Origin: a virus | Lineage: Duplodnaviria; Heunggongvirae; Uroviricota; Caudoviricetes | Length of the DNA stretch: 35,430 nucleotides | Reading direction: 5' to 3' (one strand) | IMG/VR virus record: IMGVR_UViG_2923302340_000005 | Coordinates: 1-35,430 of that record | Part shown: positions 3,321-8,945 of the stretch, one piece after another | Layout of the letters: every line of letters begins with the position of its first letter | Position numbering within the stretch: the first letter of the stretch is position 1 | Translations under genes and position numbers: made by a program | The notes under the pieces: model-generated | Database searches by the model: none | Seen by the model: only the letters and a program-made list of their open reading frames with translations | Told to the model about the DNA's origin: nothing

Positions 3321-3524
3321 ATGGCAATTAAGCATTTTCCCGTCGTTCGCTTTACCTCCAGAGGGCGCGAATACGAGGTCGACGAACGCCTGATTACCAC
3401 TATCGACAAACATCGTTCGGAAAAGGATGCACACCACATCTACCTCACTGACGGCACTTACTTCTGCGCCACTAATGTGGCGCGGGTAAACCTTATCCGA
3501 CAGGTACAGGAGCCACGCAGATGA
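3321..3524 (+). CDS. Hypothetical early protein
   Basis: 67-aa ORF with strong RBS (AAAGGGGG); stop overlaps the next start. Confidence 0.55.
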   Translation: MAIKHFPVVRFTSRGREYEVDERLITTIDKHRSEKDAHHIYLTDGTYFCATNVARVNLIRQVQEPRR

Positions 3525-3787
3525 CCATTCTGGACTACATCGCTACTCATCCGGGGTGTAGCGGCGGAGAGATCGCCGCAGCACTGAATACTCCAACCAC
3601 AGCCATTAATGCTGAGTTACGCCAACTTTGGCGCGGCGGCTTAGTCATCAGAACAAACCGCAGCACAGGTGGTCGCGCTCGCAAAACTGGAGGCCAGGCT
3701 TCTTACCACGTAAACCCGATGCCGTTCGGGTGTAGCAATCCACTTACTCACATGTTTAACCAGCTACTGAAGGAAGCCAGAACATGA
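3521..3787 (+). CDS. Putative winged-helix DNA-binding protein
   Basis: 88-aa ORF coupled to its neighbours; sequence pattern (ILDYIATHPGCSGGEIAAALN...LRQLWRGGLV) resembles a wHTH regulator. Family assignment is by eye only. Confidence 0.45.
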   Translation: MTILDYIATHPGCSGGEIAAALNTPTTAINAELRQLWRGGLVIRTNRSTGGRARKTGGQASYHVNPMPFGCSNPLTHMFNQLLKEART

Positions 3788-4083
3788 GCACCATCAACCA
3801 CCAGAAGCTACGCGAACTGGCATTTGCCCTGCAACGAATGGCAACACCTCAAAAATTACTGGCATTTCGCGCAATGCTCTCGCCGTCTGCTGCGCTGGCA
3901 TTGCTGGATGAGCTGGAGCACGCCAGAACCACGGCTCCTGCCATTCGCCTGACGCTCCATCATGAAATCGCTGATTTCTGCGCGACATTGGAGGTGCCAG
4001 GCGAACCGGAAACGCCGGAAGCAATACAGCAAGAGCTGCTGCAACGTATTGACAAGGTTTTTGATTTTTTTCTGAACCAGTAA
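3784..4083 (+). CDS. Ea22/Ead-like N-terminal domain protein
   Basis: 99 aa; shares the N-terminal signature MSxINxQxLRELA and ALLDELE with the two genes at 9325 and 9921. Confidence 0.5.
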   Translation: MSTINHQKLRELAFALQRMATPQKLLAFRAMLSPSAALALLDELEHARTTAPAIRLTLHHEIADFCATLEVPGEPETPEAIQQELLQRIDKVFDFFLNQ

Positions 4084-4190
4084 GAAACCAGAGCATGCAC
4101 ACACAAAAAAACCGCTTGCCATGCCGCAATCAGTCAGGTTACATTTCCGCTGCACCTCATAAAACGGGTGCCGGGTTTCGCAGCCTGCTG

Positions 4191-4395
4191 ACTACAAGAG
4201 CGCACAACCGCGCCAGCGGTTTTTTTGTGCGTACTGTATTGCCACGTTTTTTTCGCGTCAGAATTATGGCGGGGCGTACGGGGCCGACTTCGGTCGGGCC
4301 GGGATCTCTTGTAGCCGGTACTGCGAACCTCGTACGTCTCGCCACCCACAGTTTCGCAGCTCTGGATGGTGAGTTTTCACAACTTACTACAAGAG
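4191..4395. repeat. Three copies of CTACAAGAG, two direct and one inverted
   Basis: ACTACAAGAG at 4191-4200 and 4386-4395; reverse complement CTCTTGTAG at 4306-4314. The third copy contains the AAGAGG ribosome-binding site of the gene at 4406. Confidence 0.7.
4206..4226 (+). terminator. Rho-independent terminator candidate
   Basis: Stem AACCGC / GCGGTT with GCCA loop, followed by a T-run (4221-4226). Confidence 0.55.
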
Positions 4396-4405
4396 GCCAC
4401 ATATC

Positions 4406-4636
4406 ATGGCAAACCGCAAACAGCACCGCACTATCGCGGAGCGTCGTCACATCCAGACTGAAATCAACCGCAGACTTTCCCGCGCATTCCGCGTCGCTAA
4501 AATCATGCACATCAATATGCTGCATGAGCGTAGCTGCGAACTTTCAAACCTCTATTCATCCGCTGTTTTCAGCTATCTGGCGGATGATCTGCGCGAGCTT
4601 CAACAGCTCATCCAGCAGCAAAACAAACTCCATTAA
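4406..4636 (+). CDS. Hypothetical small basic protein
   Basis: 76-aa ORF, AAGAGG 9 nt upstream; preferred over the overlapping low-complexity 205-aa ORF 4095-4712. Confidence 0.5.
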   Translation: MANRKQHRTIAERRHIQTEINRRLSRAFRVAKIMHINMLHERSCELSNLYSSAVFSYLADDLRELQQLIQQQNKLH

Positions 4637-4708
4637 TTCCTGTTCCGGACCTTTCCTGCACCTTGCGGCGGGAGGCCTTCGCACATCTGTAACAAGAGGA
4701 TTGCCGCA

Positions 4709-5074
4709 ATGATTCTCGCCAACGACTTTCTTGAATACCTGCTCAACACAGAACGTGATCTTGCCGCTCGCGTGCGTGATCGTTATGACATGTACCTGAA
4801 ATCCCTGCCTGTACCGCAGCTCGCTGACGGAAAGATTGTTATTGATGGTCGCTACATGATTGACAGCCACGAGGGAAATTACAGGCTTTACCGCATTGAA
4901 GGTGGCACCCCGTCCGTTATTGGCATTTACCAGCGCCCATCCTCTGCAATTGTCGATGTGATTGCCGACAGCATCCGCATCACACATCGCCATGCCGACA
5001 CAGAAGACACCGTGCTGGAAATTCAGCGGCTGGCTGCCGTCTGCCGCGACACCCTGAATGGCATGACGAAGTAA
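4709..5074 (+). CDS. Hypothetical protein upstream of replication gene A
   Basis: 121-aa ORF with AAGAGG-type RBS. Confidence 0.55.
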   Translation: MILANDFLEYLLNTERDLAARVRDRYDMYLKSLPVPQLADGKIVIDGRYMIDSHEGNYRLYRIEGGTPSVIGIYQRPSSAIVDVIADSIRITHRHADTEDTVLEIQRLAAVCRDTLNGMTK

Positions 5075-5080
5075 ATCACT

Positions 5081-7909
5081 ATGACGGCAGAGTACATCAG
5101 GGACTGGCAACAACCGCGCCACGCAGTGGGACGTGAAGGAACGGGGATCCCCGTTCCTGAATCTGCGCTTTCCTCCTGGCTGGATGCCTACCGGGCAGAG
5201 AACGAGCGCCGCCAGGAAATGGCTGATGCGGCGTTCTCCGCCACGCCGCTGGGCAACCTGATTAATAAAAGCCTGGATGCACAGGAAAAACAGGACAAAA
5301 CCATCACACTGGCAGGAGACGCCAGAAAACAGGCACGCGGCGCGGTGGATGAAGCCATGGCCTCGCTGCGCCTGCTGCCGTCCTATCTGCGCGATCCGCT
5401 TATTCGCCACCTCTCCTTCCTGCGCAAAAAACAGGAAGTCGATCGCCGGAAAGGCAAAAAGAGCTGGCAGGCTGAACGCTACGCGCGCGGAACCCTGCGC
5501 AAAATATTCGAACGTCTGGACCGCACCGACCACCGCTGGCTGACACCGGGTTATCGCTCCCTTGCCGGACGCGAACGCCTGGATGATTTGCTTTACCTGC
5601 CGCAGCTCAACAAGCACCAGATACAGACGCTGGCCACCATGACGGCGGCGATGTTCAGCAGCACCTTCGAAAAACTCTGCGATGGCTTTGGCGCGACTGA
5701 TGGCGAACTGACCATGGATGTAACGCTGAAGGCGTATCAGATGCTGGCCCGCATGGCGTTACACCTGCACGCCATGCCTCCACATTATGACGCACTGACA
5801 ACAGACAAAGACCGGAGGAACGAACCGGACACGGAGCTGCTGCCGGGCGCAATCCTTCGCCTGACCTGTGCGGAATGGTGGAAACGCAAACTGTGGCTGT
5901 TACGTTGCGAGTGGAGAGAAGAACAACTCCGCGCCGCCTGTCTGGTTTCCAGAAAAACATCACCCTATCTGAGCCAGGACGCGTTAAGCGAGTTTCGCGC
6001 ACAGCGCGAGAAAACCCGCGACTTCCTGAAGAGCTTCGAACTGGAAAACGAAGACGGCTTCACGATTGATCTCGAGACAGTGTATTACGCGGGAGTAAGT
6101 AACCCGGTTCACCGTAAGGCAGAAATGATGGCCACCATGAAGGGACTGGAACTTCTGGCCGAAGCCCGTGGCGACAGAGCGGTGTTTCTGACTGTCACCT
6201 GCCCGTCAAAATACCACGCAACAACGGAGAACGGTCATCCGAACCCCAAATGGAACGGGGCCACCATGCGCGACTCCAGCGATTACCTGGTTAACACGTT
6301 TTTTGCGGCGGTCCGCAAGAAACTGAACCGCGACGGCCTGCGCTGGTATGGCATCCGCACGGTGGAGCCTCACCATGACGGCACCGTGCACTGGCATATG
6401 ATGGTCTTTGCTCATCCGGAAGAAATCGACAGCATCGTGGCCATCACCCGCGATATTGCCATTCAGGAAGACCGCCACGAGCTGGGCAATGATATTACTC
6501 CGCGCTTTAAGGTGGAGTATGTCGACGGCTCAAAAGGCACGCCAACCAGCTACATCGCCACCTACATCGGAAAGAACCTGGACAGCCGCGCCGTGGATGG
6601 CATCGACCCGAAAACGGGCAAACCACGCGTTGACCACGAAACCGGAAAATCAATGGCCGAGAGCGTGGAACGCGCCATCGGCTGGGCGCGCCTTCACCGG
6701 GTCCGCCAGTTCCAGTTCTTTGGTATCCCCTCCCGTCAGGTGTGGCGTGAACTGCGTCGCCTTGCCAGCCAGATGGCACGCAACCCCGAAGGCCCGCAAC
6801 GGCTGAAGGATGACGCAATGGATGCGGTTCTTGCTGCCGCTGATGCCGGATGTTTTGCCACCTACATAGAGAAACAGGGCGGCGTACTTGTTCCACGCAA
6901 AGACTACCTGATTCGCACCGCCTACGACCTCGCAGATGAGCTGAACGATTACGGCGAACAGAGCGTACAGATTTACGGGATCTGGTCGCCACTCATCGGG
7001 GAATCCTCCCGTGTGTGCACGCATCCGGATAACTGGAAGCTGGTAAGACGCAAACCGGAAGCGGAAGACAGCGCCCGCGAAAATGGTTTTGACCTTCAGG
7101 GCGGCCCTGCCGCCCCTTGGACTCGTGGCAATAACTGTCCCCGTGTACAGGAAACGGACAACAACGGGATAGAACAGCCGGAAGAACGGCCAGCACCGTG
7201 GCCGCAGCTCCCTGACGGCGTTGAAGTGAACGAATGGATGCGCTCACTGAAACGGCACGAACGCCGGGCGCTGATGCGTTCGCTTCGGCTTCGTGACAAA
7301 CAGGCAAAAAACAGCAGTGATGAAATGCAGAGCTGGACACAGAGCCGCAAACAGCAGCGGCCTTTGCCTGATAACCACGAATTACTCGCTAAAGAATGGC
7401 GGGAATCTGCCGAATCTCTCGGCCTGCATATCGGTGAACAGCAGATGCAGCACCTGTTACGGGGCGGCAGCCTGTACGTTGACGGCAGCATCATTGCACC
7501 GCAGGGATTTGAAATTGTACGCAAACCGGATACCCGCCCGGACAGCCGAATCACGCAGCTCTGGCAGCGCCTGAGCCGTAATCACGGCGTAAGCAGCACA
7601 GAGATCCGCCATAACCCGGTCGCCAGCTATCTGGAACAACTGGGGGCATCAGACCCCGAAGCCGCCGCACGTCTGGCATCCACACTTCAGCAGGACCAGA
7701 ACACCATGAAAACCCCCGTTACCGTGCTTTCTGACATGCTGCGCGCCATCCGTGACACAGAGCACGCACAGAGAATCAGTGAAACCACTGAACGCGCCCA
7801 CCGCAAAGCAGACCTGCTGCGGGGTAGCCTGACCAGTGGAAACAAAAAACAGACAGAAACGGGACTCACAAATCTCGTAAATGAGCAAAAAACGCGCCAT
7901 AAAACATGA
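5081..7909 (+). CDS. A: Rolling-circle replication initiator, P2 gpA-like (HUH endonuclease)
   Basis: 942 aa; HUH-type metal motif HWHMMVF and paired catalytic tyrosines SYIATYIGK, characteristic of P2 A / phiX174 gpA Rep proteins; carries a long charged C-terminal extension relative to P2 A. Confidence 0.85.
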   Translation: MTAEYIRDWQQPRHAVGREGTGIPVPESALSSWLDAYRAENERRQEMADAAFSATPLGNLINKSLDAQEKQDKTITLAGDARKQARGAVDEAMASLRLLPSYLRDPLIRHLSFLRKKQEVDRRKGKKSWQAERYARGTLRKIFERLDRTDHRWLTPGYRSLAGRERLDDLLYLPQLNKHQIQTLATMTAAMFSSTFEKLCDGFGATDGELTMDVTLKAYQMLARMALHLHAMPPHYDALTTDKDRRNEPDTELLPGAILRLTCAEWWKRKLWLLRCEWREEQLRAACLVSRKTSPYLSQDALSEFRAQREKTRDFLKSFELENEDGFTIDLETVYYAGVSNPVHRKAEMMATMKGLELLAEARGDRAVFLTVTCPSKYHATTENGHPNPKWNGATMRDSSDYLVNTFFAAVRKKLNRDGLRWYGIRTVEPHHDGTVHWHMMVFAHPEEIDSIVAITRDIAIQEDRHELGNDITPRFKVEYVDGSKGTPTSYIATYIGKNLDSRAVDGIDPKTGKPRVDHETGKSMAESVERAIGWARLHRVRQFQFFGIPSRQVWRELRRLASQMARNPEGPQRLKDDAMDAVLAAADAGCFATYIEKQGGVLVPRKDYLIRTAYDLADELNDYGEQSVQIYGIWSPLIGESSRVCTHPDNWKLVRRKPEAEDSARENGFDLQGGPAAPWTRGNNCPRVQETDNNGIEQPEERPAPWPQLPDGVEVNEWMRSLKRHERRALMRSLRLRDKQAKNSSDEMQSWTQSRKQQRPLPDNHELLAKEWRESAESLGLHIGEQQMQHLLRGGSLYVDGSIIAPQGFEIVRKPDTRPDSRITQLWQRLSRNHGVSSTEIRHNPVASYLEQLGASDPEAAARLASTLQQDQNTMKTPVTVLSDMLRAIRDTEHAQRISETTERAHRKADLLRGSLTSGNKKQTETGLTNLVNEQKTRHKT

Positions 7910-7985: not shown

Positions 7986-8945
7986 ATGAAAATTTGTATC
8001 GACGACGGCTCCACCAACATCAAGCTGGCATGGACTGAGAACGGCGAACGCCGCAACGCCATCAGCCCGAACAGTTTCAAGTCGGAATGGTCTGCGCCGT
8101 TCGGTGGCACGCAGCCCGCGAACTACATGCTTGATGGCGTGCGCTATGGTTTTGATCCGGTCAGCGATCGCTTTGTCCAGACGACCGACACGCAATACCA
8201 GTACAGCGATGTGAATGTAATCGCCATTCACCACGCGCTGGTCAAATCAGGCATCACACCACAGGAAGTGGATGTGGTTGTCACCCTGCCACTGAGCGAA
8301 TATTTCGACACAAACGCACAGCCGGACATGGCCAACATCAACCGCAAAAAAGCGAACGTTATGCGCCCGGTGGAGTACCAGAACGGCAAAGCATTCACTA
8401 TCCGTAACGTACGGGTTATGCCTGAATCCATTCCGGCTGGCTTTAAAGCACTGGCTGACATGAGTCCGTTTGAATCCCTGCTGATTGTGGATTTAGGCGG
8501 AACCACGCTGGATGTGGCAAAGGTTCAGGGACAACTGGCAGGTATCAGCCAGGTGTTTTGCGATCCACACGTAGGCGTTTCCCTGATGGCCGATGCCGTA
8601 CTGTCGGTGATGGCTACTAACGGTATGCGTACCAGCCACCACATCGCCAATACCATTATCGAACATCGCCATGATGAAGCCTGGCTGCGCCAGCACATCC
8701 ACAATGACGCGCATTACGCCAGCCTGATGGCGGTTATTCGTGAAAAGGAAGAAACACTGAAACAACGCGTGATCCGCGCACTGGCGGGTTTTTCGGGTTA
8801 CGGGCGGGTGATGGTTGTCGGTGGCGGGGCGGAGATTGTGGCACCCGCTATCCGCGAAGCCTGCGGAGTTAATGCGACTTTCATCGCGGACGGGGTGCCA
8901 CAGTTTGCTCTGGTTAATGGGCTGTACGCAATGGACAAGGAGTAA
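7986..8945 (+). CDS. parM: ParM/StbA-like actin-type segregation ATPase
   Basis: 319 aa; strong resemblance to plasmid R1 ParM as recalled from memory along the whole length (IDDGSTNIKL, ISPNSFK, YSDVNVIAIHHAL, VMPESIPAG, LIVDLGGTTLD, SGY..VMVVGGGAE, LVNGLY). AAGGA RBS. Confidence 0.85.
   Translation: MKICIDDGSTNIKLAWTENGERRNAISPNSFKSEWSAPFGGTQPANYMLDGVRYGFDPVSDRFVQTTDTQYQYSDVNVIAIHHALVKSGITPQEVDVVVTLPLSEYFDTNAQPDMANINRKKANVMRPVEYQNGKAFTIRNVRVMPESIPAGFKALADMSPFESLLIVDLGGTTLDVAKVQGQLAGISQVFCDPHVGVSLMADAVLSVMATNGMRTSHHIANTIIEHRHDEAWLRQHIHNDAHYASLMAVIREKEETLKQRVIRALAGFSGYGRVMVVGGGAEIVAPAIREACGVNATFIADGVPQFALVNGLYAMDKE

Follow-up and report, generated by a model that had tools for sequence, protein, structure and literature searches.

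A probable IsrK–C4 antisense-RNA immunity module in the early operon of a P88-like Escherichia coli prophage

We analysed a 35,430-bp stretch of viral DNA (IMG/VR record IMGVR_UViG_2923302340_000005, hereafter the window), and in it the 322-bp gap between the open reading frames (ORFs) at 3784–4083 and 4406–4636. The window is a P88-like Escherichia coli prophage (Xuanwuvirus, Peduoviridae, P2 family), and we put at roughly three in four the probability that the gap is an IsrK–C4 antisense-RNA immunity module lying in the early operon of this prophage. At the same odds, the module is the same device as seqA–CI–seqC of P4, the a1b1–c4–a2b2 immI region of P1 and P7, and isrK–'orf45'/STnc1160 of Gifsy-1. 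The class of mechanism dates from about 1990, with P1 c4, followed later by P4 CI and Gifsy-1 IsrK; what we describe adds a further instance of this textbook-level phage RNA switch, not a new mechanism. The name 'IsrK–C4 immunity system' is that of the literature, where P4, P1, P7, N15 and some lambdoid prophages are listed as carriers (PMC3632133).

The original prediction, made from the letters of the window, had read the gap as a translational switch acting in cis and built from a terminator and three copies of a 9-mer, CTACAAGAG. Its parts list stands. The gap has the limits that were claimed, the terminator was recovered by a consensus scan as the stem at 4206–4221 followed by a T-run, and the 9-mer is found in the whole window at three sites only, all of them in the gap (4192–4200 and 4387–4395 on the plus strand, 4306–4314 on the minus strand), where 0.14 copies are expected and none of 100 shuffled sequences reached three. 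The motif is thus not frequent throughout the genome, a finding that the prediction had named as one that would refute it. The third copy does overlap the ribosome-binding site (RBS) AAGAGG (4390–4395), which lies 10 nucleotides (nt) 5′ of the ATG at 4406. What the prediction missed is a second set of elements, a1/a′/a2. A repeat search gave an exact 10-nt direct repeat, GTTTCGCAGC, at 4175–4184 and 4351–4360, the two copies starting ∼17 and ∼36 nt 5′ of a copy of CTACAAGAG, and CTGCGAA, the complement of the TTCGCAG core of this repeat, lies at 4321–4327, 7 nt 3′ of the middle 9-mer. Across the window the 7-mer core is not rarer than chance would have it (9 found, 6.7 expected); the set is significant because of its position and its covariation in relatives.

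Two matches above the gathering score, and only two, were returned by a scan of the whole window with Rfam: isrK and then C4, the two of them within the gap and on the plus strand. The isrK family also matches P4, P88, Gifsy-1 and a lambdoid phage. In the window the IsrK-like RNA consists of two 5′ hairpins, a single-stranded linker and an intrinsic terminator, and it bears a1 and b1 shortly 5′ of that terminator. The terminator, which does not vary among 21 relatives, corresponds to the last hairpin of the isrK model; the score that places the RNA in the family includes this hairpin and its U-tail. The coordinates of all the elements are collected in Table 1.

Table 1. Features of the gap and of the genes that follow it, in window positions
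Feature	Position	Strand	Description
Gap	4084–4405		322 bp, between ORF 3784–4083 and ORF 4406–4636
Candidate sigma-70 promoter	4116–4145	+	−35 TTGCCA, 18-nt spacer, −10 TACATT; 9/12 match to consensus
IsrK-like (P4 seqA-like) short RNA	4152–4226	+	RF01394 isrK, 66.7 bits against a gathering score of 50, model 1–77
a1	4175–4184	+	GTTTCGCAGC, core TTCGCAG at 4177–4183; complements a′; counterpart of annotated P1 a1
b1	4192–4200	+	CTACAAGAG, first copy; counterpart of annotated P1 b1
Intrinsic terminator	4206–4228	+	Stem 4206–4221, AACCGC-GCCA-GCGGTT, then T7 run
C4-family antisense RNA	4262–4349	+	RF01695, 81.1 bits against a gathering score of 45, model 1–87
b′	4306–4314	+	CUCUUGUAG; loop of C4 hairpin 2; middle copy of the 9-mer
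a′	4321–4327	+	CUGCGAA; single-stranded C4 junction; positional match to P1 a′ CUGUCAA
a2 target	4351–4360	+	∼5 nt past the predicted C4 3′ end; offset as for P1 a2
b2 target	4387–4396	+	Third copy of the 9-mer; overlaps Shine-Dalgarno AAGAGG; ends 11 nt before ATG, as in P1
Gene 4406	4406–4636	+	76 aa; P4 epsilon-related 'derepression protein'
orf121 and replication gene A	4709–7909	+	Gene order; Pfam Phage_GPA

The C4 match has the shape of its family, a long basal stem and two hairpins with compensatory changes, and its loop and junction are complementary to sites both upstream and downstream, the downstream one lying on an RBS. Alignment to the annotated 77-nt C4 of P1, whose mature ends were taken from the P1 record, predicts a mature RNA of 79 nt at ∼4268–4346. 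Folded alone, the C4 RNA has a minimum free energy (MFE) of −47 kcal/mol with a 17-bp basal stem and the two hairpins, and in a consensus fold of 40 homologues (RNAalifold) 17 of the 27 pairs carry compensatory changes. All folding of window RNA is equilibrium prediction. On that footing the pairing surfaces are accessible: the mean per-base unpaired probability of b′ is 0.83 (0.26 for the whole 9-mer being open, at an opening cost of 0.8 kcal/mol), and the whole a′ segment is open with probability 0.97. The duplexes of a′ and b′ with a2 and b2, and with a1 and b1, all come to between −11 and −14 kcal/mol; once opening costs are deducted, folding makes the IsrK-like RNA at least as good a partner for C4 as the mRNA. 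The three copies of the 9-mer, b1, b′ and b2 in the P1 nomenclature, are best read as recognition elements of the module. The middle copy, which had been proposed to sequester the RBS of gene 4406, is indeed the antisense partner of the third copy, although as the loop of a C4-family RNA and not as a simple sequestering segment in cis. By analogy with P1, P4 and Gifsy-1, where the C4-type RNA is cut from the transcript, it would act as a diffusible antisense RNA.

Across relatives the a and b elements change together. A search of genome contigs with the 76-aa protein of gene 4406 gave only three loci, and the diversity came from a scan of viral contigs with a C4-core DNA pattern, which returned 120 stretches; with the earlier loci these make up 67 distinct combinations of loop and junction. 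Taking a complement of at least 7 nt as the threshold, the junction (a) has its cognate complement upstream in 94% of the 67 variants and downstream in 88%, compared with 8% and 5% for non-cognate pairs, and the loop (b) has its own in 76% and 73%, compared with 5% and 3%. The complements stand at fixed offsets, a2 lying ∼32 nt past the hairpin in 88% of the variants. Both the b2 match and the following ORF could be called in 49 loci, and in nearly all of these b2 adjoins a motif like GAGG or GGAGG, with a start codon no more than ∼12 nt away. In 21 distinct P88-like sequences, a backbone of 93.5% identity carries six elements that are only 63–71% identical and vary together. The a cassettes assort independently of the b cassettes; one b′ loop is found with three different a′ junctions. 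Judged from sequence, such concerted variation marks an antisense system that determines specificity, as between P1 and P7. No combined a and b specificity is common to P88-like and P4-like loci in this sample, which therefore offers no evidence for RNA cross-talk between helper and satellite.

Two further candidate elements were rejected. An element complementary to a2, CTGCGAAC, lies inside gene 4406 at 4534–4541; it is present in relatives with other a′ sequences and missing from relatives that share the same a′, and was rejected because it does not covary with a′. The RBS region of orf121, ACAAGAGG (4692–4699), has 7–8 nt in common with b2, and was rejected as a family-wide C4 target because the same RBS occurs in relatives with very different b′ loops. 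In this variant ACAAGAGG may still pair weakly with C4.

The candidate promoter at 4116–4145 has a predicted start at ∼4152, which is the first base of the isrK model. Neither hexamer changes in the 21 P88-like variants, including those that differ in spacer and upstream flank, and with respect to the first hairpin the candidate is positioned like P1c4/P51b, the promoter annotated in P1; promoter-like hexamers with this placement were also read in P4 and Gifsy-1. A different promoter had been proposed within the gap, TTGCCA-N17-AATTAT at 4239–4267. It too matches consensus at 9 of 12 positions, but it was rejected as a promoter: its −35 varies among the 21 relatives (TCGCCA, TTGCTA, TTGCCG), its '−10' AATTAT is the conserved 5′ leader of the C4 family, present in P1 and other phages, and a transcript starting from it would lose half of the C4 basal stem.

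The IsrK-like element is flanked by an inverted repeat whose 21-nt arms are 90% complementary (4099–4119, ACACACAAAAAAACCGCTTGC; 4212–4232, GCCAGCGGTTTTTTTGTGCGT). In the MFE fold of 4084–4436 the left arm of the repeat pairs with the 3′ half of the terminator, so that, as far as folding is a guide, it could suppress termination in transcripts arriving from upstream; transcripts starting at ∼4152 lack this arm. Alternatively, the A-run is simply an UP-like element for the 4116–4145 promoter. The arms are nearly invariant in relatives and hence give no covariation for either role.

The gene downstream of the module, 4406, is its predicted target. Its 76-aa product scores 30.1 bits in Pfam PF25738 (Derepression protein), whose cutoff is 27, and BLASTP aligns it with P4 epsilon over 66 aa at 30% identity (E 2e-9); the RefSeq and P88 records label it 'derepression protein'. 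From this similarity it is a putative anti-repressor of the prophage C repressor. Its central segment (window 4520–4545, codons 39–50) occurs in at least three versions, LHERSCELSNLY, LHERSHALSNIY and LHRLNSTISADY, among similar P88-like phages; these may match different C repressors, and they do not follow the RNA specificity. By analogy with P1 and P4, orf121 and A would possibly be silenced by polarity while gene 4406 is untranslated. No significant similarity was found between orf121 and P4 orf151.

Taken together, these elements suggest the following sequence of events. Transcription would begin at ∼4152 from the 4116–4145 promoter, and the terminator at 4206–4228 would halt most transcripts, giving an excess of a ∼75-nt IsrK-like RNA that displays a1 and b1. 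The C4 fold would be carried both by transcripts that read through and by early-operon transcripts from upstream, and, if processing follows P1, the ∼79-nt RNA would be excised from this precursor. In P1 itself, Citron and Schuster (1990/1992) and Hartmann et al. (1995) reportedly described processing by RNase P, which is said to make the 5′ end of C4. The b′ loop (CUCUUGUAG) and the a′ junction (CUGCGAA) would then pair with b2 and a2 on the mRNA and cover the Shine-Dalgarno sequence of gene 4406, so that its translation would be blocked and polarity would probably lower transcription into orf121 and A. The a1 and b1 elements of the abundant short RNA would bind the same C4 surfaces and so set the level of free C4; in excess, this RNA would be a decoy that switches translation on, as was shown for Gifsy-1 IsrK in trans. 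The module would probably form a second, RNA-based layer of immunity that keeps the anti-repressor silent in the lysogen, because the product resembles P4 epsilon, which inactivates the C repressor of P2 and derepresses this helper prophage, and because the repressor of the prophage in the window is a close relative of P2 C.

Function has been studied in the Gifsy-1 homologue. Its 'orf45'/STnc1160 region (NC_010392, 34316–34080, minus strand) is a C4-family RNA by our scan (69 bits). Numbering from the first base of the isrK match, the mutated residues G28 and G31 fall in a1 (UUGGCGU, 26–32) and C159 and C162 in a′ (ACGCCAA, 158–164); the AUG conserved at the 5′ end of C4 is the first one of 'orf45' (A107), and b2 (AUCACCG plus GAGG) covers the anrP RBS. 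In the published reporter data the read-through transcript gives 280 Miller units of transcription and 4 of translation (Hershko-Shalev et al. 2016, PMC4825925). In the same paper, translation rises to 484 and 926 Miller units in a′ mutants and to 93 and 218 in a1 mutants in cis, 'compensated' double mutants give 224 and 327, and the short IsrK supplied in trans activates translation 100–170 fold (PMC4825925). That the 'compensated' doubles stay derepressed would fit an a′:a2 pairing.

Several points weigh against the IsrK–C4 assignment or qualify it. The promoter, the RNA ends, the processing, the translational block, the polarity and the anti-repressor activity are all inferred here. The part played by a1 and b1 is not the same in the known systems, being a second target needed for immunity in P4 and an activator in trans in Gifsy-1, and the rise in translation caused by Gifsy-1 a1 mutations in cis is not what a pure decoy model predicts. 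The Rfam family c4-a1b1 (RF03163) scores only 20.5 bits in the window against a gathering score of 46.7, which P1 (51 bits) and Gifsy-1 (48.1 bits) exceed and P4 (44.1 bits) does not; we take the upstream element in the gap to be homologous to c4-a1b1 and better described by isrK. The epsilon match is just above its Pfam cutoff. Finally, the 76-aa protein shows no similarity to P1 Icd, and gene 4406 is not an icd homologue.

A possible, though distinctly less probable, account of the same elements is that premature transcription termination, and not a translational block, is the primary output, in the style of P4. C4 would pair with a1b1 and a2b2 on the nascent transcript, both being targets and neither a decoy, and Rho-dependent termination would follow before gene 4406, orf121 and A. 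The gene order of the window is indeed nearest to that of P4 (isrK/seqA, C4/CI, epsilon, replication gene), the IsrK-like element is required for P4-like lysogeny (Barquist et al., PMC3632133), and the derepression of Gifsy-1 a1 mutants in cis fits a1 as a co-target. However, b2 sits exactly on the Shine-Dalgarno sequence in the window, as it does in nearly every one of the 49 loci, which argues for ribosome exclusion as the first event, and Gifsy-1 IsrK activates when supplied in trans. In P1 and P4 (Biere 1992; Forti 2002) termination is said to follow the loss of translation, through Rho polarity, and the two views would then be layers of one mechanism.

The switch acting only in cis, as originally proposed, we consider very unlikely. 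There, pairing of the first copy of the 9-mer with the middle one leaves the RBS free and read-through transcripts are translated, while transcripts from the gap promoter silence themselves. Folding does lend this some colour: in the equilibrium fold of 4152–4436, cis pairing of a1b1 with a′b′ reaches −106.2 kcal/mol compared with −92.3 kcal/mol for independently folded domains, and the unpaired probability of the Shine-Dalgarno sequence is 0.55 with the upstream part and 0.32 without it. As an equilibrium prediction this is weak support. Against it, the Gifsy-1 read-through transcript is made but not translated, the reverse of what was predicted, and disrupting a1:a′ raises translation instead of lowering it. 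The proposal also depends on the gap promoter, with its variable −35, its '−10' in the C4 leader and its start inside the basal stem, and it ignores the C4 structure and the a elements. What survives of it is occlusion of the RBS, which has precedent, and competition of the first copy for the middle one, for which the trans activity of Gifsy-1 IsrK is a precedent; the cis prediction of translatable read-through transcripts is contradicted in the homologue.

That the gap is instead coding, through the plus-strand ORF 4095–4712 (or its part from 4266) or the minus-strand ORF of P88, with the repeats incidental, is highly improbable: in 17 of 21 variants no stop interrupts the 148 codons from the ATG at 4266, translation of the homologous 'orf45' was detected in the Gifsy-1 work (PMC4825925) and the P88 annotation has a minus-strand coding sequence across the region, but the ORF is broken in the other four close relatives, 48% of synonymously permuted versions of the overlapping gene are equally free of stops, variation falls in complementary patches and compensated stems and not in codon patterns, and 'orf45' is conserved in nucleotide sequence while its amino-acid sequence varies (PMC12197685). 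We therefore rejected the long ORF 4266–4712, in frame with 4095–4712, as a gene: it is probably not coding, because of the stop-free permutations and the four broken relatives. It starts at the conserved AUG of the C4 5′ end, is the positional counterpart of 'orf45', crosses the epsilon-like gene in another frame, and its TGA overlaps the ATG of orf121 (ATGA, 4709–4712).

The prophage matches complete P88-like phage genomes and carries a P2-type integrase, a Cox-like protein, gpA and a C repressor that is 52% identical to that of P2; the gap and gene 4406 (4084–4640) are 90–95% identical to phages P88, vB_EcoM-569R5 and P884B11. The 1.7 kb at 3500–5200 is matched in 1401 of 5426 complete E. 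coli genomes, over at least 80% of the stretch in 844. In the one RefSeq E. coli record inspected, no RNA gene is annotated in the gap (record positions 4085–4407), and the P88 record (NC_026014, 3056–3244, minus strand) has a hypothetical protein, SF19_gp13, across the IsrK and C4 RNAs, which is probably spurious. A tRNA/tmRNA search gave no match. The gpA homologue (5081–7909) is 942 aa long, compared with a P2 A coding sequence of 2,286 nt (∼761 aa), and is followed at 7986–8945 by a ParM-type actin-like segregation protein of full length, a cargo not usual in integrated prophages of the P2 family. A P88-like module with isrK and C4 matches and an epsilon-like protein 83% identical to that of the window occurs on a contig labelled Vagococcus sp. 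WN89Y, a Gram-positive (NZ_JBQPOM010000071.1), which is likely contamination or mislabelling.

We found no description of such a module in P2-family phages in the literature searched, and, according to a survey of P4-like satellites, no P4-specific gene other than delta/ogr has a clear homologue among P2-like phages (PMC8628076). The present example contributes a setting in the P2 family, an epsilon-like target and the diversification of specificity in a very common E. coli prophage; for annotation, it supplies RNA genes that are missing from the inspected records, one of which carries a likely spurious protein in their place. Six hypervariable patches changing in concert on a 93.5% identical backbone amount to a natural library of orthogonal antisense specificities, and the varied a/b sets suggest heteroimmunity groups among near-identical prophages. 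The mapping of the 'orf45' mutations onto C4 elements links two literatures in which the same RNA is described differently. More speculatively, and with considerable doubt on our part, P88-like phages of the P2 family, which are close kin of the helpers used by P4, may carry a P4-type cassette of their own, a C4/CI RNA with an epsilon-type anti-repressor, as a second RNA layer of immunity with rapidly diversifying, combinatorial a/b specificities. If so, the balance between C4 RNA and the IsrK-like decoy would set prophage induction and heteroimmunity, without repressor cleavage, in P88-like prophages, for which roughly one complete E. coli genome in four has a match; the cassette could also be an interface for RNA-level cross-talk with P4-like satellites resident in the same host, or P4 could have drawn its immunity and derepression genes from it.

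Of the known systems, P4 is closest in gene order. The same two Rfam families occur there in the same order (isrK 60.8 bits, C4 74.9 bits), and as in the window the a and b elements lie 5′ of, within and 3′ of the RNA, with b2 on the Shine-Dalgarno sequence of the next ORF. The P4 immunity region reads PLE–seqA–CI RNA–seqC–kil/eta–epsilon–orf151–alpha, and the order seqA–CI–seqC, epsilon, replication gene recurs in the window as IsrK/seqA, C4/CI, epsilon-like gene, small ORF, replication gene, in a full P2-type phage. The a and b sequences are wholly unlike those of the window: as we read them, P4 has a1 GTGAGAA and b1 TTCACAGG, then the CI RNA, then a2 and b2. In P4, b2 runs into the GGAGG of a small ORF (record position 8366), which we take to be kil/eta, and epsilon follows ∼190 nt later, whereas in the window b2 directly precedes the epsilon-like gene and there is no small kil/eta ORF between them. 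The replication gene is a P2-type gpA and not the alpha primase, and the module sits in a whole phage of the P2 family where that of P4 sits in a satellite.

In Gifsy-1 the isrK match (79 bits) is likewise followed by the C4-family match, after a spacer of 25 nt compared with 35 nt in the window, and as in the window a short terminated RNA is combined with read-through, with b2 on the RBS of an anti-repressor-like gene. The context is lambdoid and the output is AnrP, then AntQ. Its authors read the C4 region as a translated 45-codon ORF ending at the anrP start (PMC4825925); the window ORF in the same frame runs on to 4712 and is not conserved. N15 is grouped with P1 and P7 as a user of a structurally similar RNA system (PMC3632133). 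Its anti-immunity locus has a small processed RNA that controls an anti-repressor.

The P1 map agrees with that of the window nearly nucleotide for nucleotide. Its immI region reads P51a/b–a1 b1–c4–a2 b2–icd–ant1/2, with promoters P2c4 and P1c4 annotated, and the order and spacing of a1, b1, C4 RNA, a2 and b2 are nearly identical to those of the window. The annotated a1 (TTGACAG) and b1 (GTTAGTGC) are ∼15 nt apart, and the 77-nt C4 has the loop CACUAAC and the junction CUGUCAA. P1 a2 begins 4 nt after C4, where that of the window lies ∼5 nt after the predicted C4 3′ end; P1 b2 (GTTAGTGA) runs into GAGG and ends 11 nt before the icd ATG, the distance also found in the window. The differences lie around this core. 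P1 is a plasmid prophage whose c4 is also under C1 control, and its upstream element scores as c4-a1b1 where that of the window scores as isrK. The window has neither icd, its first regulated gene being dissimilar, nor ant1/2, and orf121 and gpA follow instead, so that this is not a strict immI operon. In P1, c4 RNA blocks the RBS of the ant operon, and the specificity that makes P1 and P7 heteroimmune resides in the C4 loop and junction (PMC12197685). P1 immI controls an anti-repressor, as the P4-like module of the window is predicted to do.

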